Origin: a virus
Lineage: Duplodnaviria > Heunggongvirae > Uroviricota > Caudoviricetes
Reading direction: 5' to 3' (one strand)
DNA length: 64,000 bases
Virus record (IMG/VR): IMGVR_UViG_3300033463_000022
Coordinates: 22,542-86,541 of that record
Positions within the stretch are counted from its first letter, which is position 1. Every line of letters begins with the position of its first letter. Shown here piece after piece: positions 3,465-54,477 of the stretch. Under the pieces are notes generated by a model. The model saw only the letters and a program-made list of their open reading frames with translations, was not told the origin of the DNA and did not search any database. The position numbers and the translations under genes were made by a program.

Positions 3465-3650
3465 ATGAAAGTTTATATGGGAGAATATTACAACCTCCCG
3501 AATCTTGGTCTTGTGCGCACCGTCGGCAAGGCTAGGAACTGCGAAACGTGCAAGACAATGATTATGTTCGTTACCGTCAAGGACGGCGGCATCGTGGGTG
3601 ACACGCTGCTGATCAACGAGGAAGATTTTATCAAAAGGATAGAGAAATGA
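3465..3650 (+). CDS. small hypothetical protein (61 aa, CxxC)
   Basis: ORF with AGGGAG RBS immediately downstream of a consensus promoter. Confidence 0.45.
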   Translation: MKVYMGEYYNLPNLGLVRTVGKARNCETCKTMIMFVTVKDGGIVGDTLLINEEDFIKRIEK

Positions 3651-4014: not shown

Positions 4015-4128
4015 AGGCGCACACAGCAAATTTTTACTGATAAAGTAATTTTTAGTGCATTGGTAGCACATTAGAATGTTTAATCTAAAAGAGTGGGTCC
4101 GAATCCCACAAAAATACTTTTTGCGTCT
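4015..4128 (+). ncRNA. tRNA-like RNA with an 8-nt anticodon loop (ATGTTTAA) and AT-rich acceptor-like stem, framed by outer stem AGGCGCA/TGCGTCT
   Basis: Core 4046..4117: TAATTTT-TA-GTGC-ATTGGTA-GCAC-A-TTAGA-ATGTTTAA-TCTAA-AAGA-GTGGG-TCCGAAT-CCCAC-AAAAATA-C; CACAGCAAAT motif in the 5' insert. Confidence 0.35.
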
Positions 4129-4282
4129 AGAATTGATTAAAAGCTGGAAGCAAGTCCTAGAGGGCGACGTCCTGCAGGCGGTTCGTACTGGGCAACCAGC
4201 TTTTACACAAAATTTGGTATGCCCTAGAAAATTGTAGGGCAAAATCTTATAAAGATGCCACAAGTTTTTTTATATATAATAG

Positions 4283-4368
4283 ACGGAGATGACCGAGTGG
4301 TTGAAGGTATCAGACTTTGAATCTGACAGGGAAACCTCGCGTGGGTTCGAATCCCGCTCTCCGCGCCA
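4283..4368 (+). tRNA. type II (Ser-like body, long variable arm) tRNA with anticodon UUG
   Basis: 3-bp D-stem with 11-nt loop GAGTGGTTGAA (Ser-like), stem TCAGA/TCTGA with loop CTTTGAA, T-arm GTGGG-TTCGAAT-CCCGC, A1.C72 mismatch, discriminator G, CCA encoded. Confidence 0.5.
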
Positions 4369-4396
4369 ATTATTTCGAATAAAGGAGAATATAAAA

Positions 4397-5321
4397 TGAC
4401 TTGTGGCATCTATAAAATTGAAAACAACATAAATCATAAGATTTATGTTGGACAATCTCGAAATATAGAGCGTCGTTGGCAAAAACATAAAGCTGCAAAT
4501 GAAGATTACGCGCTCCATAAAGCATTCTAGAAGTACGGAGTTGAAAATTTCACATTTTCTATCCTAGAAGAATGTGATGTTGATATGCTTGATGAACGAG
4601 AAATCTATTGGATAGGATATTTTGACTCTTATCATCAAGGATATAATGAAACTAAAGGCGGTCAAGGTACTTCTGGGCTAACGATGAAGCTTACTGAAGA
4701 TTAGGTTTCTATAATAAGAGAACTTTTAAGAACAACCAACAGAACGAATGCTGATATTGCTGATGAATTTGGTGTTTCAGAGAATGCTATTAGCGGCATA
4801 AATACTGGATATTATTGGAAAAATAATTAGATAGATTACCCCATCAGAAAACAAGTTACTCGTCCTAAAAGCACTAAAAGCACTTATTGCTTACGATGTG
4901 GGCATGAATTAAAATCTCATAGCTCAACTTACTGCCCTGAATGTGCAGCAATCATGAGACGAAAGGTTGAACGCCCTTCCAAAGAAGAGCTTCTAAAAGA
5001 ACTTCAAGAATCTCAAGGTGCCTTTACAGCGATAGGAAAGAAATATGGAGTGACAGATAACACTATCAGAAAATGGTGTTCTGCATACGAACTACCAACA
5101 CACACATCAGATTATAAAATAGTAGTAAAAGAGAAGAAAGGTAAAAACTTTCCACCTGTTCGGGTTTAGCAGATAGATAAGAAAACCGGTGAAGTAATTC
5201 GAGAATTTGAATCTTTATCTCAGGCTCAAAGAGAAACTGGAATTGATCACATTATTCCCGCTAGCGATCCCAATAATACCACTCGAAAGACCGCAGGCGG
5301 ATATATATGGCGAAGAATTTA
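4397..5321 (+). CDS. GIY-YIG homing endonuclease (308 codons, 4 in-frame TAG read as Gln)
   Basis: N-terminal GIYKIEN...YVGQS, KAF-Q-KYGVENF across a TAG, C-terminal NUMOD-like ...QQIDKKTGEVIREFESLSQA; RBS AAAGGAGAAT. Confidence 0.8.
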
Positions 5322-5671
5322 ATTCTTCTCTATAGGGAATTAGTATAACAGCAGTGCGCTAGGCTCTGAACCTAGAGGAGGAGGAGCGTCACCTTCATTC
5401 CCTGCCATTAAGGAGAATATCTCGCCTCCGTATGCTAAAATACGCTACCAAGAGAAATAGAGCGGTAAGGATAAGCACGCTCAGCGAGTTTAACAATAGT
5501 AAGGAAAGCAGGACGGTCGGAAATCGTCTATAAGTCTTTTCTATATAGTGACCAGCGGGATGTAGATCTAGAAAATCATCATTTAAAGAGTCGCTCTAAG
5601 GGCGCAATGAGCGTTTGGGTGAAAACCACACCTCTGGCGTTTGGCGGTAACGTAGAACCGCCACTTCCCTC

Positions 5672-5748
5672 GCTCCAGTAGCCCAACTGGCAGAGGCATC
5701 GCACTTAAGATGCGAAAAGTGTGGGTTCGAATCCCACTTGGAGTACCA
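5672..5748 (+). tRNA. type I tRNA with anticodon UAA (Leu-decoding anticodon on a short-variable-arm body)
   Basis: Stem TCGCA/TGCGA with loop CTTAAGA, T-arm GTGGG-TTCGAAT-CCCAC, acceptor with terminal G.U pairs, A-CCA encoded. Confidence 0.5.
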
Positions 5749-5932
5749 TTAAGACGGTCACAGCAACAACTTTTCTGACAAGTATAAATCAGAGCCATTT
5801 TAACTTACCGTCTAGCTTTTATATAATGCCGCGAGCGGTAATGGTTTAGAAATTCTCCCTACAAATTCACAGTAGTCCTCGGGCGTGCCTGAAATGCCGA
5901 GCAATACGAGGGCCGCGGCTAAAATTTTATAT

Positions 5933-6019
5933 CGGGGAGCTGCTGAGTTGGTGATCAGCGGCGGGCCGTAACCCCGTTGCCCAACGGCTAAGTAGGTTCG
6001 AATCCTACCTCCCTGACCA
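5933..6019 (+). tRNA. tRNA-Tyr(GTA), type II
   Basis: Acceptor CGGGGAG/CTCCCTG, 5-bp D-stem GCTGA/TCAGC, anticodon loop CCGTAAC, variable-arm stem GCC/GGC, T-arm GTAGG-TTCGAAT-CCTAC, A-CCA encoded. Confidence 0.55.
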
Positions 6020-6200
6020 AAACGAAATACGACTATGCAGCTTCATATATTCATCATGATAACCTCCTTTCTTGAAACAATAGCAAGACAGACCTTGGTC
6101 GCTGCATACAAGGTAACTTGCGGCGGTCGCCCTAAAGGTCGGCGAGGCAGCTTTTTCTTCACTCCCCTGCCTCCGACCGGCGCCCGCACTTTCCCTCCCC

Positions 6201-6238
6201 AGACCCAGAGATTAACAGTCTCTGGGTCTTTTCTTTTA
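6201..6238 (+). terminator. intrinsic terminator (AGACCCAGAG-ATTAAC-AGTCTCTGGGTCT plus T-run)
   Basis: Perfect 11-bp hairpin followed by TTTTCTTTT. Confidence 0.6.
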
Positions 6239-6246
6239 TCTGCGCT

Positions 6247-6292
6247 ACCGCGAACGGCCGAATTCCCGTGACTAGGCCCCACCAATTTTTTC
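6247..6292 (+). promoter_or_regulatory. conserved GC-rich element ACCGCGAACGGCCGAATTCCC...CCACCAATTTTTT (copy 1 of 2)
   Basis: 20/21 identical to 32541..32561 and shares the CCACCAA(A)TTTTTT tail; both copies follow a terminator and precede TAG-containing genes. Confidence 0.45.
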
Positions 6293-6380
6293 CTTTCGTT
6301 TACTGGACGAAATTCTTATATTATATTTTCCCAATTTTCATATATCATAGGACAATGAAAATGAAAGGAGATAAAACTCT

Positions 6381-6701
6381 ATGTATACACCGACCTTTCT
6401 TAACGGGCAAGCAGCAAATATGGTTCGCGAGTTTGTTGTTGATACCGTTGAGGATATTACTTCTATAGATGTCTCCTAGTTACTACCTGGCTCAAGGGTA
6501 TTTGTTATTAATACAAGCTAGTGGTATATGCTAAATCACAGAAAATTATGGCAGACTATTAATTGGGGCTCTGGCGGAGGCGGTTCTGGCGGAAGTGTAG
6601 TATATGATGGCGGCAATATAGACGATAATTCAGCGAGCGACAGCGGTTCTGGAAGTGGAACCTCTACAAATAACACTTCATATGACGGTGGACAGCCTTG
6701 A
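6381..6701 (+). CDS. hypothetical structural-region protein (106 aa, Gly/Ser-rich C-terminus; 2 in-frame TAG)
   Basis: RBS AAAGGAG; frame open across TAGs at 6477 and 6519, ends at TGA. Confidence 0.5.
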
Positions 6702-6749
6702 CGGGCTAACCTACGAGTGAAGAATTTGTAAAGGAGGAATAAGGGTACT

Positions 6750-7256
6750 ATGGCAGATACAGTAATTAAAACTACTTTCTAGTTTCGCCGTGGGCAAGCT
6801 GCCACTTGGGCAAGCAAAGACCCAGTATTAGAATATGGCGAACCGGGTTTTGAAAGTGATACTGGAAGATTAAAAATTGGCACCTCAGACAAAAAGCATT
6901 GGAGCCAACTTCCCTACTTTGGTGGCGGAGGTGTATGCCAAGGCTATTATTATAATGGTGCCTTTTATAGCGATGTAAGTCATACGCATGAAATGCCGGC
7001 TTCTGTTGAATATATATATATTGATATTTCAAATTCCAATATATATTTCTATAACGGAAGCGCATATGTCCAAATCATCAATGGCGGTGGTACAATCGTC
7101 CCCGCGACAGATACCACTCCTGGTGTGATGAAGCTCTATAACGCCGCCGGTGCTAATACCGACGGTACTATAACTCAAAAATTTATCACAGAAGAATTAA
7201 ACAAGAAAGTTGAGGCTTCTGTTGATAGTGCACATGAAACTTTAATCCTCGACTAA
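6750..7256 (+). CDS. tail-fibre protein with the conserved phage fibre N-terminal motif (168 aa, 1 TAG)
   Basis: MADTVIKTTF-Q-FRRGQAATWASKDPVLEYGEPGFESDTGRLKIG matches the widespread FQFRRG...NP.L..GEPG.E.DT fibre motif, with Q supplied by the TAG; RBS AAAGGAGGAAT. Confidence 0.75.
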
Positions 7257-7279
7257 TTTTGTTAAGGAGGAATTACATT

Positions 7280-8143
7280 ATGTCTATTAACCCTACTTTT
7301 TCTAATACGCCAGTCCTTGCTAAAGTAAAAATTGGTAATTCCACCTATTTTCTTAAAGATGCAGAACTGCGTAATATTGTAAGCGCATTTGGTAACGCTG
7401 TCGAGCAAGACATTGCAGTTTCTATTGGCTCTGAAGCAACCGGTATTCCTCTCGCTAGTGACGTCTTCGCTTTTGTTGTCAGCGAGATTGGTACTCTTGG
7501 TCAGGCTATTACTCTTCTAAGCGAATCGGATCATACAGAAGTTTTAGTCCCTAGGAATGGTAACTTCGTAGTTGAATCCAACGGTGAAGAATGGCTATAT
7601 GTTGTTGATTCTACTACTGGTGTTGGAGCTTGGCGTGAGGTTGGCAGCGAAAATGCTTATGTTTTAAAGACATTTGAAGTTGCTGGCATTGCTATGAGTG
7701 GTTCTGAGATTACTGCTTCTCAGCTTTCTAGCGCGATGGATCTCAAGGCTTTTGCCCATGCAGATTCTGTTAGTTACACTCCAGAAGGCGGCGTTTCGGT
7801 TTCCCTTTCTACTTCCGATGTGAACGTTGTCACTTCTGTCGGCAAGCTTGGTTCTTTTAATGCGGGTTCTTATGTTGCACCTAGCATTTCTGAATCTTCT
7901 GGTTCTTTTGCAACAGCTGGTCTTGTTGCTTCTGTTGGCAGCGGCGATGATGCAGAAACTTTAATTTTGACTGCTGCAACTCTCGGTAACGCGCTTACCG
8001 CAACCAACTTTAATGCTGGCAGCTATACCGCACCTACTTATACCGGTGCAGAGCTTCCTAGTGTGGCTTCTTTTAGCGCTGCTTATGGTGTCGCTAATGC
8101 AGCTTTTAGTGGCACTAGTGCTACTATTGCTCCTGGCACTTAA
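7280..8143 (+). CDS. Ala/Ser/Gly-rich tail-fibre or structural protein (287 aa)
   Basis: RBS TAAGGAGGAATTACATT-ATG identical in context to the flagellin RBS; low-complexity A/S/G/T composition typical of fibre shafts. Confidence 0.55.
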   Translation: MSINPTFSNTPVLAKVKIGNSTYFLKDAELRNIVSAFGNAVEQDIAVSIGSEATGIPLASDVFAFVVSEIGTLGQAITLLSESDHTEVLVPRNGNFVVESNGEEWLYVVDSTTGVGAWREVGSENAYVLKTFEVAGIAMSGSEITASQLSSAMDLKAFAHADSVSYTPEGGVSVSLSTSDVNVVTSVGKLGSFNAGSYVAPSISESSGSFATAGLVASVGSGDDAETLILTAATLGNALTATNFNAGSYTAPTYTGAELPSVASFSAAYGVANAAFSGTSATIAPGT

Positions 8144-8147
8144 TATT

Positions 8148-8187
8148 AAGGACGGAGTAGATTTATTACTCCGTCCTTAATTTTTAC
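8148..8187 (+). terminator. intrinsic terminator (AAGGACGGAGTAG...CTACTCCGTCCTT plus T-run)
   Basis: 13-bp inverted repeat followed by AATTTTTA. Confidence 0.65.
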
Positions 8188-8214
8188 TGAGAAAAAGGAG
8201 TTAAAAGAATTCAT

Positions 8215-9189
8215 ATGAAGTTATAGATACTAGTCCCTCAATATAAAGAGACGGATGAAATTATTAAGTCTTTGCTGGATTCGCTTTTGATCTAGCAAAA
8301 TGTTGACTTTAATGAATTTAGCGTTATAATTGTGAATGATGGAACGGATGTTTGTTTAAGTGATAAATTACTTACTTCTTATCCGTTTAAAATAGATTAC
8401 TATAAAGCTCCACATCGAGGAGTTTCTGCTACGCGTAATACCTGTCTTGACTATGCAACGGCTGATTATGTCATGTTTTGCGATGCCGATGATATGTTTT
8501 ATAATGCGTGCGGACTGTATTTAATTTTTAGAGAGATTAATTTAGGATTTGACACGCTTTCTTCTAAGTTTATAGAGGAAGGACATACTGATAGCGGTGA
8601 AGTCGTGTATATAAATCGAGAGAACGATAGCACTTTTGTTCATGGTAAGGTTCATCGGAGGTAGTATCTAATAGATAATAACATCAGATGGAATCCAGAA
8701 CTTACAATTCATGAAGATAGCTTCTTTAACTCTCAATGCCAACTGTATACTGATAAGCCAAAGTATTTGAATGAGTCCTTTTATCTTTGGAAGTGGAGAC
8801 CCGACTCCGTCTGTAGGCGCGATCCTGAGTATATATTAAAGACTTATCCCTGTTTAATAGATAGTATAGACTCTTTAGTTGATAAACTTGAGCGAGATGG
8901 GAAGCATGAGAGAGCTGTTTATTATACGGCTTATTTATTGTTCACCAGCTACTATACTATTAATAAACCCTAGTGGAGAGATAAAAAGAACCTTGACTAC
9001 TTAATGAAAATGGAGTTAAGGTGCTATTAGTTTTTTACCAAGCATGAGAGTAAATGGAAAGAATTTCCATTAAAATCGGCTATGGAATTGAGTTCTAAAT
9101 TGCGAGTTTAGGCTATTAATGAAGGTATGCTATTGGAATAGCTTACCTTAGATTAGTGGCTAAATAAACTTATTATGAACTATAAATAA
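8215..9189 (+). CDS. family-2 (GT-A) glycosyltransferase, 324 codons with 8 in-frame TAG
   Basis: ILVPQYKETDEI...VIIVNDGTDV and YVMFCDADDMFYN (DxD) motifs; single frame open from 8215 to TAA at 9189 only if TAG is sense. Confidence 0.7.
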
Positions 9190-9203
9190 AGGAGGATCTG
9201 AAA

Positions 9204-10010
9204 ATGGCAGATATTTCTTTAATAAAGATTAATAAGACAAATATGACCTACGGTGTAAAAGATCTAGAAGCCAGATAGAGCATTGCTAATATAAAAGACG
9301 GAGTTGCCATTGATAGTTTTAGTGACGTTGAGAGTGCTTTAGCTGACAAAGTCGATGCAGAGTCTCTCGGCACGGCTGCCACTATGGAAGCAGGAGCGGC
9401 TAATGGAGTTGCCACCCTTGATAATGGTGGAAAAGTTCCTGCTAATCAGCTTCCATCTTATGTCGATGATGTTCTTGAATATGCGGACGAAGCAAGCTTC
9501 CCTGTAACAGGTGAGGTAGGAAAAATTTATGTAGATATAGCAACTGGAAAGACTTATCGTTGGAGCGGTTCTCAATATATCGAACTAAACACATATGCCG
9601 AAGCTACACAGAGCGCGTCTGGATTAATGAGTAGGAACGATAAGACAAAACTAGATGGTGTAGATGTAGGCGCGGAAGTCAATGTATAGAGCGACTGGAA
9701 TGTAACTGATAATGCATCTGACGCATATATTAAAAATAAGCCATCTATTGCTTAGATAAAGCAATATTCAGTGGTACTTGATAAAGACACTTGGGTAGCA
9801 GGACAGGATAGTTTTTCTTATACTCTATCTATCCCAACTTTAAAGTGCGGCAATGATGGAACCGTAGCTCCTATTATTACTCCAATAAGTAATATAGAAG
9901 AATATTCTACAATAGCTAGCGCAACTGCAACAGTTGGCACAGGAATTGTTTTTGTCGCGCCTGTAAAGCCAACAAAAGGCATTAGTATTATCGTTTAGGA
10001 CGTTGGCTAA
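9204..10010 (+). CDS. tail-fibre protein (268 codons, 4 TAG) with conserved fibre core domain
   Basis: GVATLDNGGKVPANQLPSYVDDVLEYADEASFPVTGEVGKIYVDIATGKTYRWSGSQYIEL and SASGLMSRNDKTKLDGV are canonical tail-fibre motifs. Confidence 0.8.
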
Positions 10011-10032
10011 TTATTATAAGGAGGAATAAATA

Positions 10033-12039
10033 ATGAGCGTAAATGCTATTTTAATGGATCAAGAAACTCTTATAGCGCCGGAATTTAGCACCAGTAACAG
10101 CTATGGGGTTGGAGATTATGTGAAATATGGAAACAGAATCTATAGATTCTTTGAAAGTAAGCCTGCTGGAGCTTGGAACGGAGGCTATGTAGAGGAAATC
10201 AGTGCTGTTGGATAGTATGTAACCGCTGGGCAGAAGAGCGGGACTACATTAGGAAGATACGCAACGGCAGAAGGATACGACACAACCGCTTCTGGCGATT
10301 ATTCTCATGCAGAAGGTGGTTCTACACACGCTTCTGGCGATTATTCTCATGCAGAAGGTGGTTCTACACACGCTACACGTATTTATTCTCACGCAGAAGG
10401 CGAATATACATATGCTAATGGTGAAGCTTCTCACGCAGAAGGCGAATCGACAAATGCTATGGAGGAAGCTTCTCATGCAGAAGGTAATCTAACAACAGCT
10501 TCTGGCGAAGCTTCTCATGCAGAGGGTTATATAACAACAGCATCTGGCGAAGCTTCTCATGCAGAAGGGAAAAATACAATAGCTGTAGGCGATAGCTCTC
10601 ACGTAGAAGGATTTATGGACTACGAAGGGGAAGGTTATTTATTTTTAACCTCAACTTCCTATAACAACAAAATTTATAAATTTAACCTTTCTCCAGAAAA
10701 CTATATCCATATTGGAACAGTGGTAAGTGTTAAGCCCAATGGTGATTGGGATAGCGCAGTTATTAAAGAAATAAATGAAGGTCAATTGACTATCACTTTA
10801 GATAAGACGTTAGGAACTTTATAGAACTAGCATGCTTTTATTGGTGCAGCTTATGGAGCATACTCTCATTCAGAAGGATATGAGACTTCGGCTGCTGGTG
10901 AAGCTTCTCATGCTGAGGGTAACGGTACAGCTGCTTTTAAGTACAATTCTCATGCAGAGGGCAACAATACAGAAGCTTCTGGCGAAGCCTCCCATGCAGA
11001 AGGCCGTTACACAACGGCTCGTGGTATTGGTTCTCATGCAGAAGGAGAGATGACAATAGCTTCTAGTTACGCTTCCCATGTAGAAGGCCGTAGTACAACT
11101 GCTTCTGGCGATTATTCTCATGCAGAAGGAGAGTATACAAAAGCATATGGAAGAGGTTCCCATGCCGAAGGAGGAGCTAGTCTCACAAATGGAAGTTTAA
11201 CTTCAACAGAGAATGATGAAGTATATTCTATCACATCAACTTCGGGTCTTAAGACTGGGGCGGCATTATCTTATAATGGTATCGCAACTGAGATTGTCTC
11301 AATAGATTCTACATCTTCTCCTAAGACAATTACATTAAGTAAAACGTTAGGAACATTATCAAACCAACAGGTTTATGTAGGTGCAGCTTCTGGCGATTGT
11401 TCCCATGCAGAAGGCGATGGGACAACTGCTTCTGGTTATTATTCTCACGCAGAAGGTCGTTACACAACTGCTTCTGGTTATGCTTCCCATGCGGAAGGTG
11501 ATAGTTCAGAAGCTGTCGGTCAAGCTTCTCACGCTGAAGGTGATAGTACAACCGCTTCCAAACCAGGCTCCCATGCGGAAGGTCATGGTACAACCGCTTC
11601 TGGCAACGCTTCCCATGCGGAAGGCTATATTACAACTGCTAAAGGCAATTATTCCCACGCAGAGGGTATTCATACAACCGCTTTCGGTGACTATTCCCAC
11701 GCAGAAGGTTTCAACACGGAGGCTGAAGGTAGTAACTCCCACGCAGAAGGAAATCGTACAACTGCTAATCATAAATCTCAACATGTATTTGGTGAGTGGA
11801 ACGTATTAGACACCAACGCCGCTGCCGCTACGGCCCGCGGAGACTACGTTGAAATTGTTGGTAACGGTTCTGGTTCTTCGGCTCGTTCTAATGCTCGAAC
11901 TCTTGACTGGTCTGGTAATGAGACCCTTGCTGGTACTTTAACCATCGGTGGCACTAACGGTATCACCCTTTCCATTGATTCTAGTGGTAATCTTAAAGTA
12001 ACAAAAGGTAATAAATCCGCCACCATTACTTTAAGTTAA
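10033..12039 (+). CDS. large tail-fibre or tail-spike protein with about 14-residue SHAEG (Hep/Hag-like) beta-repeats, 668 codons, 3 TAG
   Basis: Dozens of ...TTASG(D/E)YSHAEG... repeats; frame continuous across TAGs at 10213, 10822 and 10828. Confidence 0.75.
10289..10372 (+). repeat. perfect 42-bp tandem duplication inside the SHAEG-repeat fibre gene
   Basis: CTTCTGGCGATTATTCTCATGCAGAAGGTGGTTCTACACACG occurs twice back to back. Confidence 0.8.
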
Positions 12040-16266: not shown

Positions 16267-17466
16267 ATGCGTATTCAACACAATGTCACCGCGATGAACA
16301 GCTATCGCAACTTCAACACCAACAACTCCAATCTCAGCAAGAACCTTGAGAAGCTCTCTTCTGGCTACAAGATCAACCGCGCTGGAGACGACGCCGCAGG
16401 TCTGGCAATCTCCGAGAAAATGCGTGCATAGATCACTGGCCTCGAGGGCGCAACCAAAAACGCCAAGGACGGCATTTCCCTTATCCAGACCGCAGAAGGC
16501 GCACTTACCGAGGTACATTCGATGCTCAACCGTATGACTACTCTTGCCGAGCAGTCTGCAAACGGCACTTATGATAACGACGTCGACCGTACCCAGCTCC
16601 AGAAGGAAGTAGATGCGCTCAAGACCGAAATCAACCGCATTGCCGATTCCACCAACTTCAACGGCATCAAGCTTCTTGATGGCAGCCTTGGTGGATGGAA
16701 CAACACCACCGATATCACCGATTCCATGACTTACACTAGCTTCGATGTTTCTGGCGGCAAGCTCAAGAACGGCGACGCAGTCACCGTTACTCAGAGCGCT
16801 AGCGGCATGGATATTAAGTCGGTCACCGTAGGCGGTGTGACTATCGCAAAGGCCGATCTGGCTGGTAAGGGTCTTACTTGGGAAGCAGATGCCGACAATC
16901 CCGCAGGGAAGACTGGCGCATATAAGTTTACTCTCAAGGTCTCTGACCGCTCCAAGGCAACTGCCGAAGTCGCCGACGCCATTGGCGAAGGTCTCTCGGT
17001 CGCTGTCAACGTAAAGGAGAAGGTTACCTCCAATACTGATCTCGCGTTCACCACTGATGGCACTGGCGGCGGTCTGACTCTTCAGATTGGCGATACCAGC
17101 GACGACTTCAACAAGATGAATGTTCTTGTTGGAGATATGCACACCCAGGCTCTGGGCATTGCTGATATTGATATCAGCACCCAGGAAGGTGCATCCAGCG
17201 CTATGGATCTTATCAAGAACGCTATCAACCAGGTCTCTGACACTCGTGGCGGTCTTGGTGCCCTCCAGAATCGTCTTGACCACACCATCAACAACCTCGG
17301 AACCATGCGCGAGAACATTCAGAACGCTGAGTCCAACATCCGCGATACTGACGTCGCAGAGGAAATGATGGCGTACACCAAGAACAACATTCTGAACCAG
17401 GCTGCTCAGGCTATGCTTGCGCAGGCGAATCAGATGCCTCAGGGCGTACTCCAGCTCCTTCAGTAA
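16267..17466 (+). CDS. fliC: flagellin (FliC/Hag family), 399 codons, 1 in-frame TAG read as Gln
   Basis: [16 protein letters not shown]...[51 protein letters not shown] and C-terminal [15 protein letters not shown]...[16 protein letters not shown]; the universal MRAQI Gln is encoded by TAG. Confidence 0.9.
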
Positions 17467-17684: not shown

Positions 17685-17758
17685 TCCGGCTTAGCATAAT
17701 AGTAGTGCAGGGGTCTCTAAAACCTCGGGACTCGGAGCGTAACCGAGAGCCGGTGCCA
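17685..17758 (+). tRNA. candidate amber-suppressor tRNA, anticodon CUA (reads UAG), with Gln-like identity elements
   Basis: Acceptor TCCGGCT/AGCCGGT (1:72 unpaired), D-arm GCAT-AATAGTA-GTGC, stem GGGGT/ACCTC with loop CTCTAAA, T-arm CTCGG-AGCGTAA-CCGAG, discriminator G73, CCA encoded; D and T loops noncanonical. Confidence 0.5.
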
Positions 17759-25061: not shown

Positions 25062-26444
25062 ATGTCTGAACACGTCGGTTATATCGTGAAGGTTGAATTC
25101 CTTCGTCCGCACTCTAACGCTGATCGCCTCAATATTCTCACCGTTTTCGGCGAAGATACCTGTGTTTCTAAGGAAGTTCAGGTTGGCGATATCGGCATCT
25201 ATTTCCCTTGCGATCTCCAGCTGAGCGAGGAGTACTGCGACCAGAACCACCTTTGCCGCAAGAAGGCAGATGGTACTCCCGATACTGGTTATCTTGAGCG
25301 CAACACTCGTCATGTGACCGCCATCAAGCTCCGCGGTGAGAAGTCTAGCGGTCTCTATATGCCTCTCTCTTCTCTTGCTTACTGCGGCAACGCTTCCTTT
25401 GAGGTCGGTCAGAAGATCGACATGGTGAACGGTCATGAAATCTGCCGCAAGTATATCCCCCGTTCTAACACCCGCCAGGGGCAGGTTAGCGAGGGCAACC
25501 GCACTCGCAAAAAGCGCGTGCCTTTGGCGCCTCTCTTCGCTGAGCACGCTGACACTGAGCAGCTTGCTTACAACCTGGCAGCCTTTAAGCCTGGTGACCT
25601 CGTTGAGATCACCTTGAAGATGCACGGCACTTCTCAGCGTACTGGCTACCTGCCTAAGTACTCTGGCGAAAAGCGCACCTTCTGGCAGAAGCTGTTCAAT
25701 AAGCCTGGCACTCCTATCTACGACTGGGGTTATGTAACCGGCACTCGCCGCACCGTACTTAACGACTTCGACGAGGGCGGCTTCTATGGCAACAACGAGT
25801 TCCGTTCGGGCCCCGCCAAGTTCTTCGAGGGTAAGTTGGAGAAGGGTGAAACTGTCTACTACGAAGTCGTAGGTTTCACCACTTCTGGTGCGCCTATCAT
25901 GGCTTCTCAGTCCAACAAGCAGGTTGATAAGCTTCTTGGCGACAAGAGCTTCTCTCAGAAGTACGGCGAGACTACAGTCTTCTCCTATGGTTGCACTCCG
26001 GACGGTGATCTCCAGCAGGACTTCTATGTCTACCGCATGACCTTCACCAACGAGGATGGCTTCGTCGTAGAGTATACTCCCGACTTCATGCGCTATCGTT
26101 GCGAGCAGATGGGAGCTAAGTGCGTACCGCTGCTTTGGAAGGGATTTATTCCAAAGACGCCAAAGCGTTATCCATCCAATGAAGATGGCCTCACCTTCCG
26201 CGAGGAAGAGTGTAGCGCTGGCGAGTATGTTAAGGCAATCGCCGAGGAATACTTCGACGGTCCCGACCCTGTCGGTAAGACCCACGTTCGCGAGGGCGTT
26301 GTCTGCCGTATCGTAAATCGTCCGAAGTTCTGCGCCTACAAGCACAAGAACTTCTCCTTCAAGGTGCTCGAAGGCCTCATTAAGGAGAACGCGCAGGCTC
26401 CTGACATGGAAGAAGCCGAAGATATCAAGAGCGATGAAATCTAG
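25062..26444 (+). CDS. Rnl2-family ATP-dependent RNA ligase fused to an N-terminal tRNA-binding OB domain; GC-rich, TAG-free
   Basis: Nucleotidyltransferase motif I EITLKMHGTSQRTG matches T4 Rnl2 KIHGTN; N-terminal VKVEFLRPHSNADRLNIL resembles the Myf/CsaA tRNA-binding fold. Confidence 0.65.
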   Translation: MSEHVGYIVKVEFLRPHSNADRLNILTVFGEDTCVSKEVQVGDIGIYFPCDLQLSEEYCDQNHLCRKKADGTPDTGYLERNTRHVTAIKLRGEKSSGLYMPLSSLAYCGNASFEVGQKIDMVNGHEICRKYIPRSNTRQGQVSEGNRTRKKRVPLAPLFAEHADTEQLAYNLAAFKPGDLVEITLKMHGTSQRTGYLPKYSGEKRTFWQKLFNKPGTPIYDWGYVTGTRRTVLNDFDEGGFYGNNEFRSGPAKFFEGKLEKGETVYYEVVGFTTSGAPIMASQSNKQVDKLLGDKSFSQKYGETTVFSYGCTPDGDLQQDFYVYRMTFTNEDGFVVEYTPDFMRYRCEQMGAKCVPLLWKGFIPKTPKRYPSNEDGLTFREEECSAGEYVKAIAEEYFDGPDPVGKTHVREGVVCRIVNRPKFCAYKHKNFSFKVLEGLIKENAQAPDMEEAEDIKSDEI

Positions 26445-27048
26445 CTATAAACAAATAGCTTGCGGCGGCATGGTTGCTGGCTTCCTCATAGGGTGCGCAG
26501 CTGCTGCTAGTACCCTCGCCGCCGCAAGCCTTCCCTTTCTAAAACCCCTCATTTTTCCCTTCGCTCTTCTCTTGATTTGTTATGGCAGATTCCATTTATT
26601 TACAGGAAACCTCTATAAAATTGGAAGAGATGAGTCTCTGTCCGCAATAACTAAATATAACTTACTTGCACTTAACTACATTTCCAATTTGCTAGGAACT
26701 TTTTTGACGAGCCTTCTCATAAAAGTTCCAACAGAAGCAATGATGTTTGATAAAGCAGCGCTCGGCGCAAGGAAGATTTTTTTCTTAGGCATCGGTTGTA
26801 ATATCCTCGTATGTTTAGGTGTTAAGCTCTTTAAAGTCTCTCCTTTCGCTACCTATTGTTGCACTGCTTTGTTTGTAGCTTGCGGATTCGAGCACTCTAT
26901 AGCGGATATGTATTATGCGCTATGTCTTCCATTCTCTTGGTCGTATCTCCTAGGTTTTGGTTCTGTAGTAGTGGTTGTGACTGCTGGTAATATAATAGGT
27001 GCTTTTATTGTGATTTTAATAGAAAGGATAATGGAACATGACTCTTGA
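26434..27048 (+). CDS. polytopic membrane protein (204 aa)
   Basis: Five or six hydrophobic helices. Confidence 0.45.
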   Translation: MKSSYKQIACGGMVAGFLIGCAAAASTLAAASLPFLKPLIFPFALLLICYGRFHLFTGNLYKIGRDESLSAITKYNLLALNYISNLLGTFLTSLLIKVPTEAMMFDKAALGARKIFFLGIGCNILVCLGVKLFKVSPFATYCCTALFVACGFEHSIADMYYALCLPFSWSYLLGFGSVVVVVTAGNIIGAFIVILIERIMEHDS

Positions 27049-27366: not shown

Positions 27367-27582
27367 ATGAGAGATTTCTATGGAGAGATTGATAAGGCAC
27401 TGCAAAGCTATGAACAGTTTAAGCCCTGTCATATTCATAATACAGAATGGATTTGTAATCGCATCGACTGGTGTTATAAGTGGCGGAAAATCACCAAAGA
27501 GCAGATGGAAGAGCTCGTCAACCGTGTAATAGCAGTACTCGACAACGAGCTTGTGAAAGTTTGTAGAAAGAAGGGGTACTGA
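27367..27582 (+). CDS. hypothetical protein (71 aa)
   Basis: Promoter TTTACT-N17-TATAAT and GAAGG RBS upstream. Confidence 0.4.
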   Translation: MRDFYGEIDKALQSYEQFKPCHIHNTEWICNRIDWCYKWRKITKEQMEELVNRVIAVLDNELVKVCRKKGY

Positions 27583-28277
27583 TGGCACGATATGTGGTTT
27601 CCGATCTCCACGGCAGGTTTGACCTCTATCAAGAGATAGAGAAGTTTAGAAAGTCTGGAGATAAAATTATTTGTCTGGGTGACTGCGGCGACCGCGGTCC
27701 GCAGAGCATTGAAGTATGCCAAGCCATTGCAGATAATCCCGATTGGATGTGTCTGATGGGCAATCACGAGCATATGACGCTTGAAGCCCTTAAAGAAGAT
27801 ATATATTGCAGAAGTAGTAGTTACTATAATCCAGATGCCTACTCTGTTTCTTTTGATAATGGCGGAGAAGATACCTACAATGGCATGATGGAAGATCCCC
27901 GATGGTGGATTGACTATCTGAGCAAACTCCCTTATAGAATTAATATTGAGAACGAGCTTGGGCTCAATCTGATCCTCACTCATGCGGGCTTTGATCCGAA
28001 CTACGAACCGAAAAAGTGGGATTATATCTGGAATCGCTCTCATATCAATATGCCGTGGCCCGTAGACCACAAATTTGATAGAACTCTCCTAATCCATGGT
28101 CACACTCCGATCCCCGCTATTAACGAGGATTGGAAGCCGCAGGATGGCTCCTACTCCTATGCCGATGGGCATAAAATCAACATTGACGCCGGCAGTGTAT
28201 GGACGGGAGCGACAATCCTGCTCGACATTGACTCGTTCGACGAGCACATCTTCGATATAGAGGGGGAAAACAAGTGA
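27582..28277 (+). CDS. calcineurin-like metallophosphoesterase (Ser/Thr phosphatase or ApaH-like)
   Basis: DLHG, GDCGDRGP and GNHE motifs. Confidence 0.7.
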   Translation: MARYVVSDLHGRFDLYQEIEKFRKSGDKIICLGDCGDRGPQSIEVCQAIADNPDWMCLMGNHEHMTLEALKEDIYCRSSSYYNPDAYSVSFDNGGEDTYNGMMEDPRWWIDYLSKLPYRINIENELGLNLILTHAGFDPNYEPKKWDYIWNRSHINMPWPVDHKFDRTLLIHGHTPIPAINEDWKPQDGSYSYADGHKINIDAGSVWTGATILLDIDSFDEHIFDIEGENK

Positions 28278-28451
28278 GGGTATTGAGTGGATATTTCTTC
28301 ACAAAGCGCAATGGAATAGTTCCTGTCCCTCCCGACCATCTTGCCGTAATCAACCTCGCTCCGAAAACTTATTTTAATAATTTTGACCGTTCAATTGAAG
28401 AGAATGCTGACCTGCGTGGTTATATGTTTTTGATAGAAGGTGAGGATAAAG

Positions 28452-28964
28452 ATGACTCGTGAATTAAGAATTCTGGTAGGCGTGCCTGGAGTAGGAAAGT
28501 CTACTTGGGCGAAGCGTGAAGCGGCATGTCTCGATGCCGATGGATGGTCTACTGCTATCATCAGTCGCGACAAGATCCGTTTCCGCTTGCTCGACGAAAA
28601 TCCGACCGACGATTACTTTGCCTACGAGAATCAGGTATTCAAGGAGTTTGTTGACGAAATCAATGAATGCCTGTATCTTGGTGTTGATTACATATTTGCT
28701 GATGCCACTCACATCTCCTACAATTCGCGTGCTAAGCTGCTGCGTCAGTTGAAGATTGACCCCGACGTCGCGATTCGCTTCGATGTGTTCGACCTCCCTC
28801 TTGAAGTGGTACTTTATCGCAATAGTCTCCGTGAAGGGCGTGAATGCGTACCCGTCAAGGCTGTGAAGAACATGGTAGCTGCTTTTAAGACGCCCACTTT
28901 CCTCGAAACTGAAGATTGCGGCTTGAAGAATGACGTTTGTATTGTGAAGCACAGTAAGGAGTGA
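28452..28964 (+). CDS. polynucleotide 5'-kinase (T4 Pnk kinase-domain-like)
   Basis: P-loop ILVGVPGVGKSTWAK and CVPVKAVKNM parallel T4 Pnk GCPGSGKSTWA and VPIDVLRSM; RBS GGTGAGGATAAAG. Confidence 0.65.
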   Translation: MTRELRILVGVPGVGKSTWAKREAACLDADGWSTAIISRDKIRFRLLDENPTDDYFAYENQVFKEFVDEINECLYLGVDYIFADATHISYNSRAKLLRQLKIDPDVAIRFDVFDLPLEVVLYRNSLREGRECVPVKAVKNMVAAFKTPTFLETEDCGLKNDVCIVKHSKE

Positions 28965-28968
28965 AGCT

Positions 28969-29532
28969 ATGAATAAAATTTTTCTTACCTCAGATCTCCA
29001 TTTTATGCACGATCGGGAGTTCATCTGGGGTCCTCGCGGTTTCAAGAACGTTCAAGAAATGAACGAAGCGATCGTCAAGCGGGCCTGGGAAGTTATGGAA
29101 GCCAATGATGACCTCTATATTCTTGGCGACCTAATGCTCAAGGACGATGAAATGGGCTTAAAACTCATTAACCAGATGCCTGGCCGCAAGTTCATTGTCG
29201 CAGGGAACCACGATACCGATAGTCGAATTAATAAGTATATTGAACAGGTGTCTGGCCTCGAAGCGATTCAATACGCAATGAGACTTAAATACAACGGTTA
29301 TCACTTTTTTCTCACTCACTTTCCTTGTCTGACTGGCAATCTTGAACATGAATCCTTAAAGCAGACCACTTGTAACCTCTTCGGTCATACGCACTCGAAA
29401 GATAAGTTCTATCAAGATATCCCTTATATGTATAACGTAGCGGTTGACGCTCATGACTGCTATCCCGTCTCGATCGACGAGATTATTGAAGATATGGAAG
29501 CAAAAGTAAAAGAATGTAAGGAGATGCTTTGA
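28969..29532 (+). CDS. metallophosphoesterase (candidate 2',3'-phosphatase partner of the kinase)
   Basis: DLHFMHD, ILGDLM and GNHD motifs; directly downstream of the kinase. Confidence 0.6.
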   Translation: MNKIFLTSDLHFMHDREFIWGPRGFKNVQEMNEAIVKRAWEVMEANDDLYILGDLMLKDDEMGLKLINQMPGRKFIVAGNHDTDSRINKYIEQVSGLEAIQYAMRLKYNGYHFFLTHFPCLTGNLEHESLKQTTCNLFGHTHSKDKFYQDIPYMYNVAVDAHDCYPVSIDEIIEDMEAKVKECKEML

Positions 29533-30242: not shown

Positions 30243-31526
30243 ATGACACCTATTTACAATGCACGCAAAGAACTTGGCTGGAAGAAGACAGTACTTACGA
30301 GTCTCAACCACCTACTCGCCATGTTCGGCGCTACGATTCTAGTTCCAATCCTTGTACAATCATACGGCTTGCCCCTTTCAATATCTACTGCCCTCTTTAT
30401 GTCAGGAATTGGGACTCTACTCTTTCACCTGTTTACCAAGTTTAAAGTCCCCGCCTATCTCGGCTCTAGCTTCGCCTATCTCGGCGGTTTCGCAACAATA
30501 GCAGGAATGTATGAGGGTGTAGATCCTCAGACCAAGTTAGCCTATGCTTGCGGCGGCATCGTAATGGCTGGTCTAATCTACCTTGTCCTTGCAGGTATTG
30601 TGTATAAAGTGGGCGCAGATAAGGTAATGAAATACCTGCCTCCTGTGGTTACAGGTCCGGTAATTATTCTAATTGGCTTGACTTTAGCGCCGAGTGCTGT
30701 AACGAATGCGGCAATGTGTTGGCCCCTGGCTCTTACTGCCCTTGCCATTATCGTAATCTGTAATATTTATGGGCGAGGTATGGTAAAGATTATGCCTATC
30801 CTTTTAGGTGTAGCTGGTGCGTATATCGCTGCAATGATAGCGCAATACTTCGGAGTAACCAATGTTGATGGAAGTCCTCTGATTACACTTGCGGCAGCCG
30901 CCTCTCCGGTCGGTTTGCCAGACTTCGTGCTCGCCAAGTTCGACATTTCCGCAATTCTCGTAATGGCGCCCATCGCTCTAGCTAGCATGATGGAACACAT
31001 TGGAGATATTAGCTCTATCTCTGCGACAATTGACCGCCCCTTGCTCAGCGATCCCGGCCTACATCGTACACTCATGGGTGACGGATTGGCAACTTCCCTC
31101 GCCGGTCTTTTTGGCGGACCCGCAAACACCACCTATGGCGAAAATACTGGCGTTCTCGTTCTCAGTAAGGTTTATGACCCCTTCGTAGTGGAGCTTGCGG
31201 CGATATTTGCCATGCTCATAGGATTCCTGCCACCGGTCGCCGCAATTATAGGTTCTATTCCTACCGCAGTCATTGGTGGTATCTCCTTCATCCTTTATGG
31301 TATGATCTCTGCTATTGGTGTCCGTAACCTAGTAGAAAGCAAGACGGATCTAAAGGATTCTCGCAACCTTATTATAATTGCCGCTATCTTTGTGTGCGGA
31401 CTCGGGTTTACTAATGGCCTCACATTTAGCATCGGTTCTACTCCGATCACGCTTACTGGGCTCGCTATAGCGGCGGCCGCAGGCACTATTCTAAATGCGG
31501 TTTTACCTAACGAACATAATAATTAA
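30243..31526 (+). CDS. NCS2-family nucleobase (xanthine/uracil) permease
   Basis: Twelve or more TM segments, typical NCS2 layout; GC-rich. Confidence 0.7.
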   Translation: MTPIYNARKELGWKKTVLTSLNHLLAMFGATILVPILVQSYGLPLSISTALFMSGIGTLLFHLFTKFKVPAYLGSSFAYLGGFATIAGMYEGVDPQTKLAYACGGIVMAGLIYLVLAGIVYKVGADKVMKYLPPVVTGPVIILIGLTLAPSAVTNAAMCWPLALTALAIIVICNIYGRGMVKIMPILLGVAGAYIAAMIAQYFGVTNVDGSPLITLAAAASPVGLPDFVLAKFDISAILVMAPIALASMMEHIGDISSISATIDRPLLSDPGLHRTLMGDGLATSLAGLFGGPANTTYGENTGVLVLSKVYDPFVVELAAIFAMLIGFLPPVAAIIGSIPTAVIGGISFILYGMISAIGVRNLVESKTDLKDSRNLIIIAAIFVCGLGFTNGLTFSIGSTPITLTGLAIAAAAGTILNAVLPNEHNN

Positions 31527-31537
31527 GGAGAAAACAA

Positions 31538-32482
31538 ATGATTGGTGTTATTATCTTCTTCGCGGTTCTCGCTATTGCACTCAATATCACCTTTGGTATT
31601 CTGAGTAAGGAAAAGCCGTCTATGGACGACTATGATAAGCGGCTGTGCCACAAGTTCAAGCGCATTCGTTGGATTGCCACTATTGTTCCTACGGTCTTAA
31701 TGGTTTTAATTATCGCTTTTGCCGGTATCAAGATCATCGACTCCACCACCGTTGGCGTCGTAAAGACTTTCGGCAAGATTGACCACAGTATTTCTGGCGG
31801 TCTGAATTTTGTCAATCCGATTACCGACACAGTTACGACATATGACTTGAAGGTCCAGGCTCATGAAGCTTCCTTCTCGTCTTACACTAAAGATGCCCAG
31901 CCCGTCACCGGCGCCATTGAAGTTCAGTATTCTCTGAACCCCGCGTACATCCTTGATATCGCGCAGGAATACGGTACAATCGAGCAGCTTCAGGCGAAGC
32001 TCGGCAATACCATCGAAGAGCGTACGAAAATCGTCTTTGCTCGATATGGTGCGATGACGCTGCTGGAAAACCGCTCTAGCCTGTCCGCAGAAGTCACGGC
32101 AGAGGTTAAGCAGCTTGAAGAGCAGTTTAACGTAAAGTTCAACCAGGTTATCGTCCGCGATATCGACTTCTCTGATGCGTTCGAAGCTTCTGTTGAAGCT
32201 AAGATGGAAGCGGAGCAGGCTGCTCTGAAGGCCGAGCAGGAAAAGAAGACCGCAGTTATTAAGGCTGAGCAGGAGCAGGAAGTCGCTCGTATTGCTGCTC
32301 AGGCAAAAATTGCCGCCGCTGAAGGCGAAGCCCAAGCTTTGAAGATTACGCAGGAAGCTTTGGAGCAGATGCCCGAGAAGTGGATTCAGCAGATGTACCT
32401 CGAAAAGTGGGATGGCAAACTGCCCACCTACATGGTTGGCGATGGCACTAGCATTATGCTTACGCCTTCTCTTGGAGAGTAA
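31538..32482 (+). CDS. SPFH/band-7 (prohibitin/HflK-like) membrane protein
   Basis: N-terminal TM helix, SPFH core and C-terminal AEQ-rich coiled coil. Confidence 0.7.
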   Translation: MIGVIIFFAVLAIALNITFGILSKEKPSMDDYDKRLCHKFKRIRWIATIVPTVLMVLIIAFAGIKIIDSTTVGVVKTFGKIDHSISGGLNFVNPITDTVTTYDLKVQAHEASFSSYTKDAQPVTGAIEVQYSLNPAYILDIAQEYGTIEQLQAKLGNTIEERTKIVFARYGAMTLLENRSSLSAEVTAEVKQLEEQFNVKFNQVIVRDIDFSDAFEASVEAKMEAEQAALKAEQEKKTAVIKAEQEQEVARIAAQAKIAAAEGEAQALKITQEALEQMPEKWIQQMYLEKWDGKLPTYMVGDGTSIMLTPSLGE

Positions 32483-44773: not shown

Positions 44774-45733
44774 ATGTTTTACGGTTTAATTATCGAAGGC
44801 ATCTGTCTACTTGCTCTTTTTATTCTGTACTTGCGGGCGCGAGGTCAAGCGCGGCATACAGTCTAGCGTAACGACGCCATAGAGCAAGAAAACTAGCAAT
44901 TGGCTAATACAAATGACTAGCTACGTATTGAGTAGATGGCTCTTAATGAGTAGCGCAATGCTTCAGAGAAGCACTTAGAGTCATTAAAAACTTAGGTGTA
45001 GGCATAGGGCAACATTTTATAGAGCTACACTTTAACCACCCAATAGCTTGAAAAAGACGCCAAAGAGCGGGCTGAGCAGAGCTATTAGGCGGCGGCCGCA
45101 AGCCTAGCACAAAAGTATGGTTAGCAAGAAGCTGAATTAGAAACAACTTATTAGCAACACTCATAGTAGTTATTATCCCGTATTAAAGAAGAAGAAAATA
45201 AGCTAAAAGATTTAGAAGATAAATAGCTTGCTTATATTAAAGCAAAACAACGAGAAGAAGAAATTGCTGCTTAGCGAGATTATTATCGACTAGTTCTTGA
45301 AGATATAGATTGTGAAGAGATAAAGCTTCTTCGTAATTTATAGGTACAATTCTCAAGGAAAGAAGCCATCGATAAGCTTATATGGGAGAGTTACTACAAA
45401 GCAGCTTACGACCTCTTGATGACGCATTTGTTCTAGAGTTCTGATAAATTATGCGGCATCTATAAAATCACTAATCTTGAAAACGGTTAGGCGTATATTG
45501 GGCAGTCTGTTGATATAAAAGAGCGGTTTAGATAGCATATCAAATCTGCTCTAACAAGCGGCCCTACAACCAATAAGCTATATCAATAGATGAAGAAATA
45601 CTAGCCCGAAAATTTCACTTTTGAAATACTGGAATCGGTTTCGCGAGATAAATTGAATGAACGAGAATAGTACTGGATAGACTTTTATAAAACAAAAGAC
45701 TATGGAATGAATGGGACAAAAGGTGGGTCATGA
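44774..45733 (+). CDS. TAG-saturated ORF: TM helix plus Gln-rich coiled coil fused to a C-terminal GIY-YIG nuclease domain (319 codons, about 25 in-frame TAG)
   Basis: Frame free of TAA/TGA for 319 codons in AT-rich DNA while carrying about 25 TAG; C-terminal LCGIYKITNLENG-Q-AYIGQSVDIKERFR-Q-HIK...NEREQYWIDFYKT is a GIY-YIG core. Confidence 0.55.
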
Positions 45734-54282: not shown

Positions 54283-54477
54283 CTTTAGTGTGGCCCTAAA
54301 ACTTTTTTCCGTCTTATCAACGGGGTCGCTAATTAAATGGCCAATTCTGGACATTCTTGATTAGTTGGCTAACGAGAAAACCTAAATATAATAGAGGATA
54401 TTATACATGGTAATCTCGTGGGAAGAATTATTCTTTATATGACGTCCTCTTAATTTAGAATTAAGGAGACATAAAGT

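Follow-up and report, generated by a model that had tools for sequence, protein, structure and literature searches.

In the textbook view, the long variable arm of bacterial tRNAs is reserved for the acceptors of leucine, serine, tyrosine and selenocysteine, and it is the main handle for seryl-tRNA synthetase (SerRS). Glutaminyl-tRNA synthetase (GlnRS) recognises its substrates by the anticodon (U35, G36) together with the acceptor stem and the discriminator base, and U35 is a key contact (PMC9976931). For an amber tRNA-Ser, changes of base pairs 1-72 and 3-70 were shown to switch the identity from Ser to Gln (PMC9976931). In the tRNA cluster of a phage, the free-standing GIY-YIG endonuclease SegB cuts the tRNA gene regions of rivals and drags neighbouring tRNA genes along (PMC2330249), and SegB homologues were found to be significantly associated with tRNA genes (PMC13096335). 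This paper describes a long-armed tRNA gene with the anticodon UUG, located at 4283-4368 in a stretch of 64,000 nucleotides (nt) of a Caudoviricetes virus (IMG/VR record IMGVR_UViG_3300033463_000022, positions 22,542 to 86,541), which is called the window. This window tRNA is a real gene that probably serves as the phage's tRNA-Gln(UUG), with a class II (long-armed) body, and was probably brought in by a homing-endonuclease cassette.

The tRNA gene and the allele that it replaced

ARAGORN identified a tRNA at exactly 4283-4368 on the plus strand (86 nt, anticodon ttg), and Rfam RF00005 matched this interval with 55.3 bits, the gathering score being 29. The cloverleaf was derived from the sequence together with the minimum-free-energy fold. 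In the acceptor stem, positions 2-7 are paired with 66-71, while A1 stands opposite C72 as an unpaired mismatch, and at the 3' end G73 precedes a CCA that the gene itself encodes. The D stem comprises 3 base pairs (bp), ACC/GGT, with the 11-nt loop GAGTGGTTGAA; the anticodon arm has a 5-bp stem, TCAGA/TCTGA, and the 7-nt loop CTTTGAA (U33, U34 U35 G36, A37), and the T arm reads GTGGG-TTCGAAT-CCCGC. The variable region of 14 nt, C-AGG-GAAA-CCT-CGC, folds into a hairpin with a stem of 3 bp and a GAAA loop, and this long arm, in place of the short variable loop of class I architecture, is the unusual feature of the gene. The conserved U8, A14, G18G19 and T loop are present, the cloverleaf is intact, and the 7-position acceptor stem and 5-bp T stem give the normal 7/5 geometry. 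The first, sequence-only reading of this DNA had described a long-armed tRNA with a UUG anticodon, and ARAGORN, Rfam and the fold show this description to be accurate. A scan for sigma-70 promoters identified no plus-strand site near the gene.

The same reading had called the body Ser-type. The long arm is present as described, but it is not unique to Ser. The same D loop is also found in phage tRNA-Tyr genes, and the 14-nt arm lies within the range of Tyr tRNAs in comparable phages (12-15 nt) and below that of Ser tRNAs (18-19 nt; other tRNAs, 15-21 nt). By these sequence features, the body is Tyr-like at least as much as Ser-like.

The identical 86 nt are present in a JGI contig (L107) and in an ENA contig assembled with MEGAHIT (L005/L108), neither of which differs from the window at any position across 6-17 kb around the tRNA. 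A Logan contig (L006), which corresponds to window 5831-10316 downstream of the tRNA, is likewise identical. The three assemblies may represent the same or sister samples. An assembly slip is unlikely as the origin of the window tRNA, because two other assemblies, from JGI and ENA, hold the identical gene.

The locus was compared with an open reading frame (ORF) of 61 amino acids (aa) as anchor, which lies at 3465-3650, some 630 nt ahead of the tRNA. Its homologues (74-93% identity) are located on short contigs, two of which, L112 and L113, span the tRNA site; L112 and one copy of the window phage stem from a single ENA assembly. In both sister contigs the gene order is Gly(GCC), the 61-aa ORF, Val(UAC), an odd tRNA and a conserved leader ending GGCAACCAGCTTTTA, after which TTT and a 77-nt class I tRNA-Gln(UUG) follow. 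This class I tRNA has A1-U72, C2-G71 and G73, and its loop, CTTTGAA, is identical to that of the window tRNA. Three nucleotides further on lies a tRNA-Gln(CUG) with exactly the sequence of window 5334-5407. Colinearity of the window with both contigs extends up to 4205/4207 and resumes at 5331, and the junctions of the window-specific segment, 4207/4208 and 5330/5331, are sharp and lie in conserved flanks. Between them, L112 and L113 have 80 nt (TTT and the class I tRNA), whereas the window has 1,123 nt (4208-5330), in which a spacer of 75 nt is followed by the long-armed tRNA(UUG) and by a GIY-YIG homing endonuclease gene of 308 codons. At this locus, one allele has thus been replaced by another, and coincidence is unlikely, because the replacing tRNA has the same anticodon as the replaced one. 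The suggestion that the gene was a variant of tRNA-Ser(UGA) or an indel artefact did not hold up, since a whole 1.1-kb segment, and not one base, differs from the sister phages; the positional orthologues, which were checked for a UGA loop, are class I tRNA-Gln(UUG).

Since a more distant contig (L118) contains neither the leader nor any UUG tRNA at the site, the tRNA(UUG) slot is variable among relatives. Relatives that were identified via the neighbouring structural protein P0121 have their arrays elsewhere or cut by contig ends (L007, L009-L014, L016-L018), and another one found via P0121 homologues, L019, is without the long-armed tRNA. In the 73 kb that were covered for the window phage (the window and 8.8 kb upstream, from L107), Gln(CUG) and a suppressor (CUA) are present, and no other UUG tRNA and no Ser(UGA) was found.

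The left homology flank is the leader (4124-4207, plus strand, about 85 nt), which is nearly identical in L112 and L113, occurs as a single copy in the window and has a 10-bp closing stem, AAAAGCTGG/CCAGCTTTT. It gave no match in Rfam, a permissive threshold applied to 4100-4300 returning only a chance snoRNA match, and a scan for the conserved leader in IMG/VR gave 0 matches. Conceivably, the leader might be a theta/HDV-like ribozyme. The 5' spacer of the window-specific segment (4208-4282, plus strand) contains a small hairpin (4220-4241) and has no counterpart in L112 and L113. Within it lies the left arm of a long inverted repeat (4247-4275); the right arm (4389-4417, plus strand, 29 nt) is 86% complementary to it. 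The repeat brackets the tRNA and covers the start codon of the endonuclease gene (ATG 4396). The predicted long-range stem gives the region a z of -4.84, and 0 of 200 shuffles fold as well. Translation that is coupled to transcript origin or tRNA processing is known for other phage endonucleases, and from the modelled stem it may be that the inverted repeat controls translation of the endonuclease in such a way.

The endonuclease gene itself (4396-5322, plus strand, 308 codons) contains four in-frame TAG codons (4528, 4702, 4828 and 5167) and ends with a TAA stop. Its product matched Pfam PF01541 with 47.1 bits and PHROG 7168, 'homing endonuclease', with E = 7e-33. In the arrays of other phages (L114, L115), genes for homologues of this protein immediately follow tRNA genes, and an exact look-up of the 44-aa N-terminal product returned only the same JGI contig. 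The right homology flank is formed by the class I tRNA-Gln(CUG) at 5334-5407 (plus strand; A1-U72, G73; Rfam 43.9 bits), which is identical in the sister phages.

Charging, codon meaning and alternative explanations

The acceptor end was compared with those of the tabulated tRNAs of this phage group. The Gln(UUG), Gln(CUG) and CUA tRNAs all carry G73 and have U-A, A-U, AxC, UxU or CxU at 1:72, and none of them has G1-C72. The A1xC72, C2-G71 and G73 of the window tRNA recur in a class I tRNA-Gln(UUG) of the relative L002. Among the ten Ser tRNAs of the group, G1-C72 is present in nine and a 1:72 mismatch in none; C2-G71 is found in some phage Ser tRNAs too. Compared in this way, the acceptor end of the window tRNA (A1.C72, C2-G71, G73) is Gln-like and unlike those of the group's Ser tRNAs. 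G73 is the discriminator of both Ser and Gln tRNAs and does not separate them. The anticodon loop contains the set for tRNA-Gln, U34 U35 G36 and A37, and a Ser anticodon (NGA or GCU) is not present, the anticodon being UUG.

Mutants of the class II su+3 tRNA-Tyr with G1 changed to A or A73 changed to G are reportedly mischarged with Gln. By analogy, the window tRNA would have a combination that permits GlnRS to take a long-armed tRNA, and the usual Ser acceptor features are not part of it; most bacterial tRNA-Ser share a conserved G1-C72 and G2-C71 (PMC9976931). With respect to the elements known for E. coli GlnRS, G3-C70 is present, and C2-G71 and A10-U25 stand in place of G2-C71 and G10. As the bona fide class I Gln(UUG) of the sister phages also has C2-G71, the E. 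coli G2-C71 rule may not apply to this host. Of the three explanations that the sequence-only reading had offered, that of a chimeric tRNA with GlnRS-like A1.C72 and G73 is the one best supported by the sequences, because the L002 tRNA-Gln(UUG) has the same acceptor end and the Ser tRNAs differ.

Charging by tyrosyl- or leucyl-tRNA synthetase (TyrRS, LeuRS) was considered and rejected: by the established identity rules both require A73, and the window tRNA has G73. A selenocysteine tRNA or an allo-tRNA was rejected on the stem geometry, an acceptor/T-stem arrangement of 8/4 or 9/3 not being found.

The meaning of CAA was determined from the proteins of the phage. In the DnaE-like polymerase, aligned with 119 homologues, the 34 CAA columns contain Q in 57.5%, E in 8.5% and K in 6.8%, followed by D, A and R, and the 12 CAG columns have a substitution spectrum of the same kind. 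The columns of Ser codons contain S in 54.5%, then A, N and T. Against YorL of the cultured, standard-code phage SPbeta, CAA corresponds to Q at 8 and to S at 3 of 34 positions, and Ser codons correspond to S at 27 and to Q at 2 of 77. In late genes that contain TAG, the codon of the relatives at a window CAA is CAA in 18 of 37 cases, TAG in 5 and TCN in 2; in orthologous late genes, a TAG of the window faces CAA in relatives in 20 of 36. In this phage, CAA is thus a Gln codon by these comparisons, as are CAG and the reassigned TAG, and the idea of a CAA-recoding tRNA finds no place. The plus-strand gene set of the window contains 289 CAA, 225 CAG and 77 in-frame TAG codons.

Recoding of TAG to Gln is known for gut phages (PMC9523058; PMC10607447), and the window phage fits this description. 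The reassigned TAG would be read as Gln by an amber suppressor, the tRNA(CUA) at 17685-17758 (plus strand), in which U1 and U72 are mismatched and the discriminator is G73. The sense reading of TAG is limited to a subset of genes, for example those at 8215-9189, 9204-10010 and 53011-54336, and the polymerase, topoisomerase and helicase genes contain no TAG. In the phage flagellin, a TAG lies inside the N-terminal motif EKMRA-x-I, at whose position x Gln is usual in flagellins. The ORF at 44774-45733 has 24 in-frame TAG among 319 codons (7.5%) and encodes a Gln-rich coiled coil that is followed by a C-terminal GIY-YIG motif; its use of the reassigned codon is extreme.

The following sequence of events is proposed for the locus. 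The 1.1-kb cassette 4208-5330, consisting of the tRNA and the free-standing GIY-YIG gene, would have replaced the resident 77-nt class I tRNA-Gln(UUG) by homing, provided that the predicted endonuclease is active. The host GlnRS would charge the window tRNA with Gln via U34-U35-G36, A37, G73 and the unpaired 1:72, and the charged tRNA would read CAA and also CAG, both of which are Gln codons here. With an incoming isoacceptor of unrelated sequence, the carrier would be safe from cleavage by an endonuclease directed at the ordinary allele. The long-armed form may also escape host nucleases that are aimed at the normal tRNA, which would be a selective benefit of this body.

Several points weigh against a tRNA-Gln function. 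The window tRNA is without three elements of E. coli GlnRS recognition, G10, G2-C71 and U38, and it contains the main SerRS determinants, namely the long arm, G73 and C11-G24; SerRS ignores the anticodon (PMC9976931). A class II body would also fit the indirect GluRS/GatCAB route less well, should the host use it. A second copy of the body was found neither in IMG/VR nor in the JGI and species-genome scans, so that covariation or conservation gives no support, and all assemblies which contain the gene are identical and possibly come from one sample set. In these scans, exact and degenerate patterns of the body returned nothing in IMG/VR, or one chance match inside a coding region. The combination of Ser-type D loop, CTTTGAA and T loop was found on six unrelated contigs in the JGI metagenomes, none of them a relative of the window phage, and gave 0 matches in 185,579 bacterial and archaeal species genomes. 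A megablast of the 4-kb neighbourhood against 50,697 GenBank phages gave no match.

That the gene is a passenger or is decaying, poorly charged or unused while the phage relies on the tRNA-Gln(UUG) of the host, is unlikely. Such a history would agree with the occurrence of the window tRNA in one genome lineage only, with the degenerate tRNA-like genes of the same array (2651-2720, 4045-4118) and with a UUG slot that can be empty, as in L118. The gene, however, retains an intact cloverleaf with U8, A14, G18G19, the T loop, an encoded CCA and 55 bits in Rfam; its anticodon equals that of the displaced tRNA, and its acceptor end, A1.C72 and G73, looks tuned.

A mistranslating or dual-identity tRNA, charged fully or partly by SerRS and inserting Ser at CAA and CAG, either as the cost of a selfish cassette or as deliberate damage to host proteins, is less probable still. 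The class II body with G73 and C11-G24 is what such a tRNA would need, the GlnRS set of E. coli is incomplete, and a UUG tRNA with a canonical Ser acceptor stem does exist elsewhere (L021). It is also known that SerRS is blind to the anticodon and that anticodon mutants of tRNA-Ser mistranslate (PMC9976931). The phage, however, uses CAA as Gln 289 times in the window, at conserved Q positions, and a Ser-inserting tRNA(UUG) would hit its own proteins hard, because CAA is its commonest Gln codon. In addition, the SerRS identity set which the sequence-only reading had recognised is present in part: it includes the long arm, G73 and C11-G24, whereas the G1-C72 and G2-C71 of most bacterial tRNA-Ser are both absent, and the 14-nt variable arm, with a stem of only 3 bp, falls short of the 18-19 nt seen in Ser tRNAs of comparable phages. 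The 1:72 mismatch places the window tRNA with the Gln tRNAs.

That an ordinary tRNA-Ser(UGA) gene was altered by an error of sequencing or assembly, or that CAA is truly reassigned to Ser, is highly improbable: CTTTGAA resembles the Ser loop CTTGAAA, and an intermediate with one insertion, a Ser body with the 8-nt loop CTTTGAAA, exists on a low-coverage human-gut contig (L023, 1-120, minus strand), but the conversion, which had been taken for one indel, requires two changes (an insertion and a deletion, or two substitutions), JGI and ENA assemblies from different pipelines hold the identical sequence, the neighbours at the site are Gln and not Ser tRNAs, and CAA acts as Gln in every test, with substitutions of the E/K/R/D type and not S/T/A.

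Long-armed and armless tRNAs in this and other phages

A sensitive BLAST search of GenBank phages with the window tRNA identified two further long-arm tRNAs, whose cores are about 80-84% identical to it. The first one is present in the cultured Citrobacter phage Tr1 (L121; long-arm loci 1485-1573 and 216-301), where it has the anticodon UUC and A73, adjoins a class I Gln(UUG) and is unannotated in GenBank. The second one, with the anticodon UUU and A73, lies between class I Lys genes in the 636-kb megaphage LR756504 (L120, 1484-1572).

A pattern of this scaffold (D loop TGGTYGAA, AGACT-NNN-AATCT, long spacing and T loop) was then scanned in IMG/VR and gave 54 matches (L122-L175): Tyr GUA 24, Asn GUU 16, Lys UUU 4, Lys CUU 1, Cys GCA 3 and Ser 6. 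Long-arm tRNAs (85-90 nt) with anticodons other than those of Tyr and Ser are thus common, at 24 of the 54. In the non-redundant set, A73 was found in all five Lys and all 15 Tyr tRNAs and U73 in all three Cys tRNAs (a fourth is present in L122); the Asn tRNAs have G73 in 10 of 14 and U73 in 4 of 14. By this count, the discriminator of phage long-arm tRNAs largely follows the anticodon. Under the established identity rules, the discriminators found are those expected for the synthetases of Lys, Cys, Tyr and Asn (LysRS, CysRS, TyrRS and AsnRS), whereas uniform G73 would be predicted under charging by SerRS and uniform A73 under charging by LeuRS or TyrRS. Because the discriminators vary with the anticodon and are not uniformly G73 or A73, the sequences support charging of these tRNAs by anticodon rather than of all by SerRS. 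Phage tRNAs that combine a long arm with the anticodon of Asn, Lys, Cys, Glu or Gln did not come up in a search of the literature, although a description may exist.

Other contigs, too, contain long-armed tRNAs whose anticodon is that of Gln. In L021 (2894-2985), a UUG tRNA has a canonical Ser acceptor stem, GGAGAGG/CCTCTCC-G. In L020, L022 and L024, 84-nt long-arm tRNAs with UUG and CUG have A1-U72 and G73 and lie in arrays of 25 tRNA genes per 3 kb, and a further metagenomic one was found in L025 (1087-1170).

The opposite arrangement is present in the window phage itself. All three of its tRNAs with Leu anticodons (UAA, UAG and CAA) are class I tRNAs of 77 nt without the long arm, located at window 5672-5748 and at L107 7777-7853 and 7857-7933. 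A73 and the Leu-type D loop CCAAYTGGCAGAG are kept. Relatives contain class I Leu tRNAs (L019 2113-2189, L001 6322-6396) alongside normal class II Leu tRNAs. Judged from these genes, the class I Leu tRNAs are a reverse class swap.

It is possible, though we hold this view only tentatively, that a general strategy underlies these genes, in which phages rebuild class I isoacceptors (Gln, Lys, Glu, Asn and Cys) on a long-armed, Tyr- or Ser-like scaffold and build Leu tRNAs without the arm. Cassettes would spread such genes, the right amino acid would be kept, and tRNA-cleaving defences of the host as well as rival endonucleases would be evaded. A bolder variant is a dual Ser/Gln identity that would blur the decoding of CAA and CAG on purpose.

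If the window tRNA is indeed a tRNA-Gln, a natural tRNA can swap its class with the codon meaning unchanged, and an annotation based on the anticodon, like the 'tRNA-Gln' of ARAGORN, can be right where reasoning from the body misleads. For the annotation of recoded phages, long-armed sense tRNAs would then not be evidence of sense-codon reassignment without a check at the codon level. With two alleles, a class I one and a class II one with an endonuclease, coexisting in one community, the locus would offer a test system for homing in tRNA arrays and for escape from defence.

Phage background and comparison with described systems

The window is part of a phage-like genome of about 147 kb with 42.6% G+C. 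About 30 tRNA genes, all on the plus strand, are present in the window and the 8.8 kb upstream. For the DnaE-like polymerase, identity to YorL of Bacillus phage SPbeta is 40%, and hundreds of uncultured relatives reach 60-82%. Genes for a flagellar cap protein (FliD_N/FliD_C) and a full flagellin have been identified at 1213-2139 and 16267-17466, and FliD as an anchor gave no match in IMG/VR. The flagellin is closest (55-61%, over the full length) to those of Oscillospiraceae, Flavonifractor, Butyricicoccus and Mediterraneibacter, and because of these matches the host is probably a gut or rumen member of the Clostridia. The flagellin gene has 20 CAG and 1 CAA, unlike most phage genes, and this difference in usage suggests its recent capture from a host. 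Host-like membrane genes for a formate/nitrite transporter family protein, a permease-like protein and an SPFH/Band 7 protein (26434-27048, 30243-31526 and 31538-32482) are also present, in some of which the Gln codons are strongly CAG-biased.

A cluster of genes (25062-26450, 27480-28277, 28440-28964 and 28969-29532) encodes a protein with weak resemblance to RNA ligases, below the Pfam cut-off, together with an AAA_33 kinase-like protein and two metallophosphatases; from these predicted domains, the cluster may be an RNA (tRNA) repair set. In the tRNA array, the gene at 4045-4118 has an 8-nt anticodon loop, ATGTTTAA, which ARAGORN gives as 'gttt'. The same body is found in L112 (1002-1075) with the loop ATTGTCAA, where it was called Asp GUC; judging by this pair, the gene is conserved except for its anticodon loop, which has diverged. 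A further tRNA-like gene at 2651-2720 was identified by Rfam only (40.9 bits). Its loop, CTTCAAA, contains a UCA anticodon that would read UGA, and its acceptor stem is poorly paired, so that it may be a decaying gene similar to an opal suppressor.

The gut phages with TAG reassigned to Gln (PMC9523058, PMC10607447, PMC10879173) resemble the window phage in being large, in having Clostridia-like hosts, about 30 tRNA genes and a tRNA(CUA), and in reading TAG as Gln in a subset of genes. These descriptions deal with the CUA suppressor, and in the parts consulted a long-armed sense tRNA-Gln is not mentioned.

With the Candida tRNA-Ser(CAG) and with anticodon variants of tRNA-Ser (PMC9976931), the window tRNA shares a long arm combined with an anticodon that is foreign to Ser, Leu and Tyr. 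There, however, the codon is read as Ser, while here CAA is Gln and the acceptor end is Gln-like, and for these two reasons the case for Ser insertion is weak. Nematode nev-tRNAs, which are charged with Leu, and bacterial allo-tRNAs, which have an 8/4 or 9/3 geometry and Ser identity, are likewise class II-like molecules with anticodons of other amino acids; unlike them, the window tRNA has the 7/5 geometry and a discriminator that fits its anticodon.

A class II body, U35, a disrupted first pair and G73 are shared with the identity switches of the su+3 tRNA-Tyr and of the amber tRNA-Ser (PMC9976931), in which this combination led to acceptance by GlnRS. Those tRNAs were engineered or selected CUA suppressors in E. 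coli, whereas the window tRNA occurs naturally, has the sense anticodon UUG and belongs to a phage whose host is uncultured. If it is charged with Gln, it would be a natural counterpart to the identity-switch experiments of the 1980s.

The cassette is closest to SegB of T4 and T6. In both cases a GIY-YIG gene lies in a phage tRNA array and adjoins a tRNA gene, and relatives differ in their endonuclease and tRNA content. What places the window gene near SegB is its GIY-YIG domain and its membership of a PHROG homing-endonuclease family, and its homing role is predicted. Unlike the SegB region, the window segment swaps in an isoacceptor of the other structural class, and its endonuclease gene contains reassigned TAG codons. 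The locus is therefore to be placed as a new variant within known kinds, a tRNA-Gln and a SegB-like tRNA cassette, and not as a new category.

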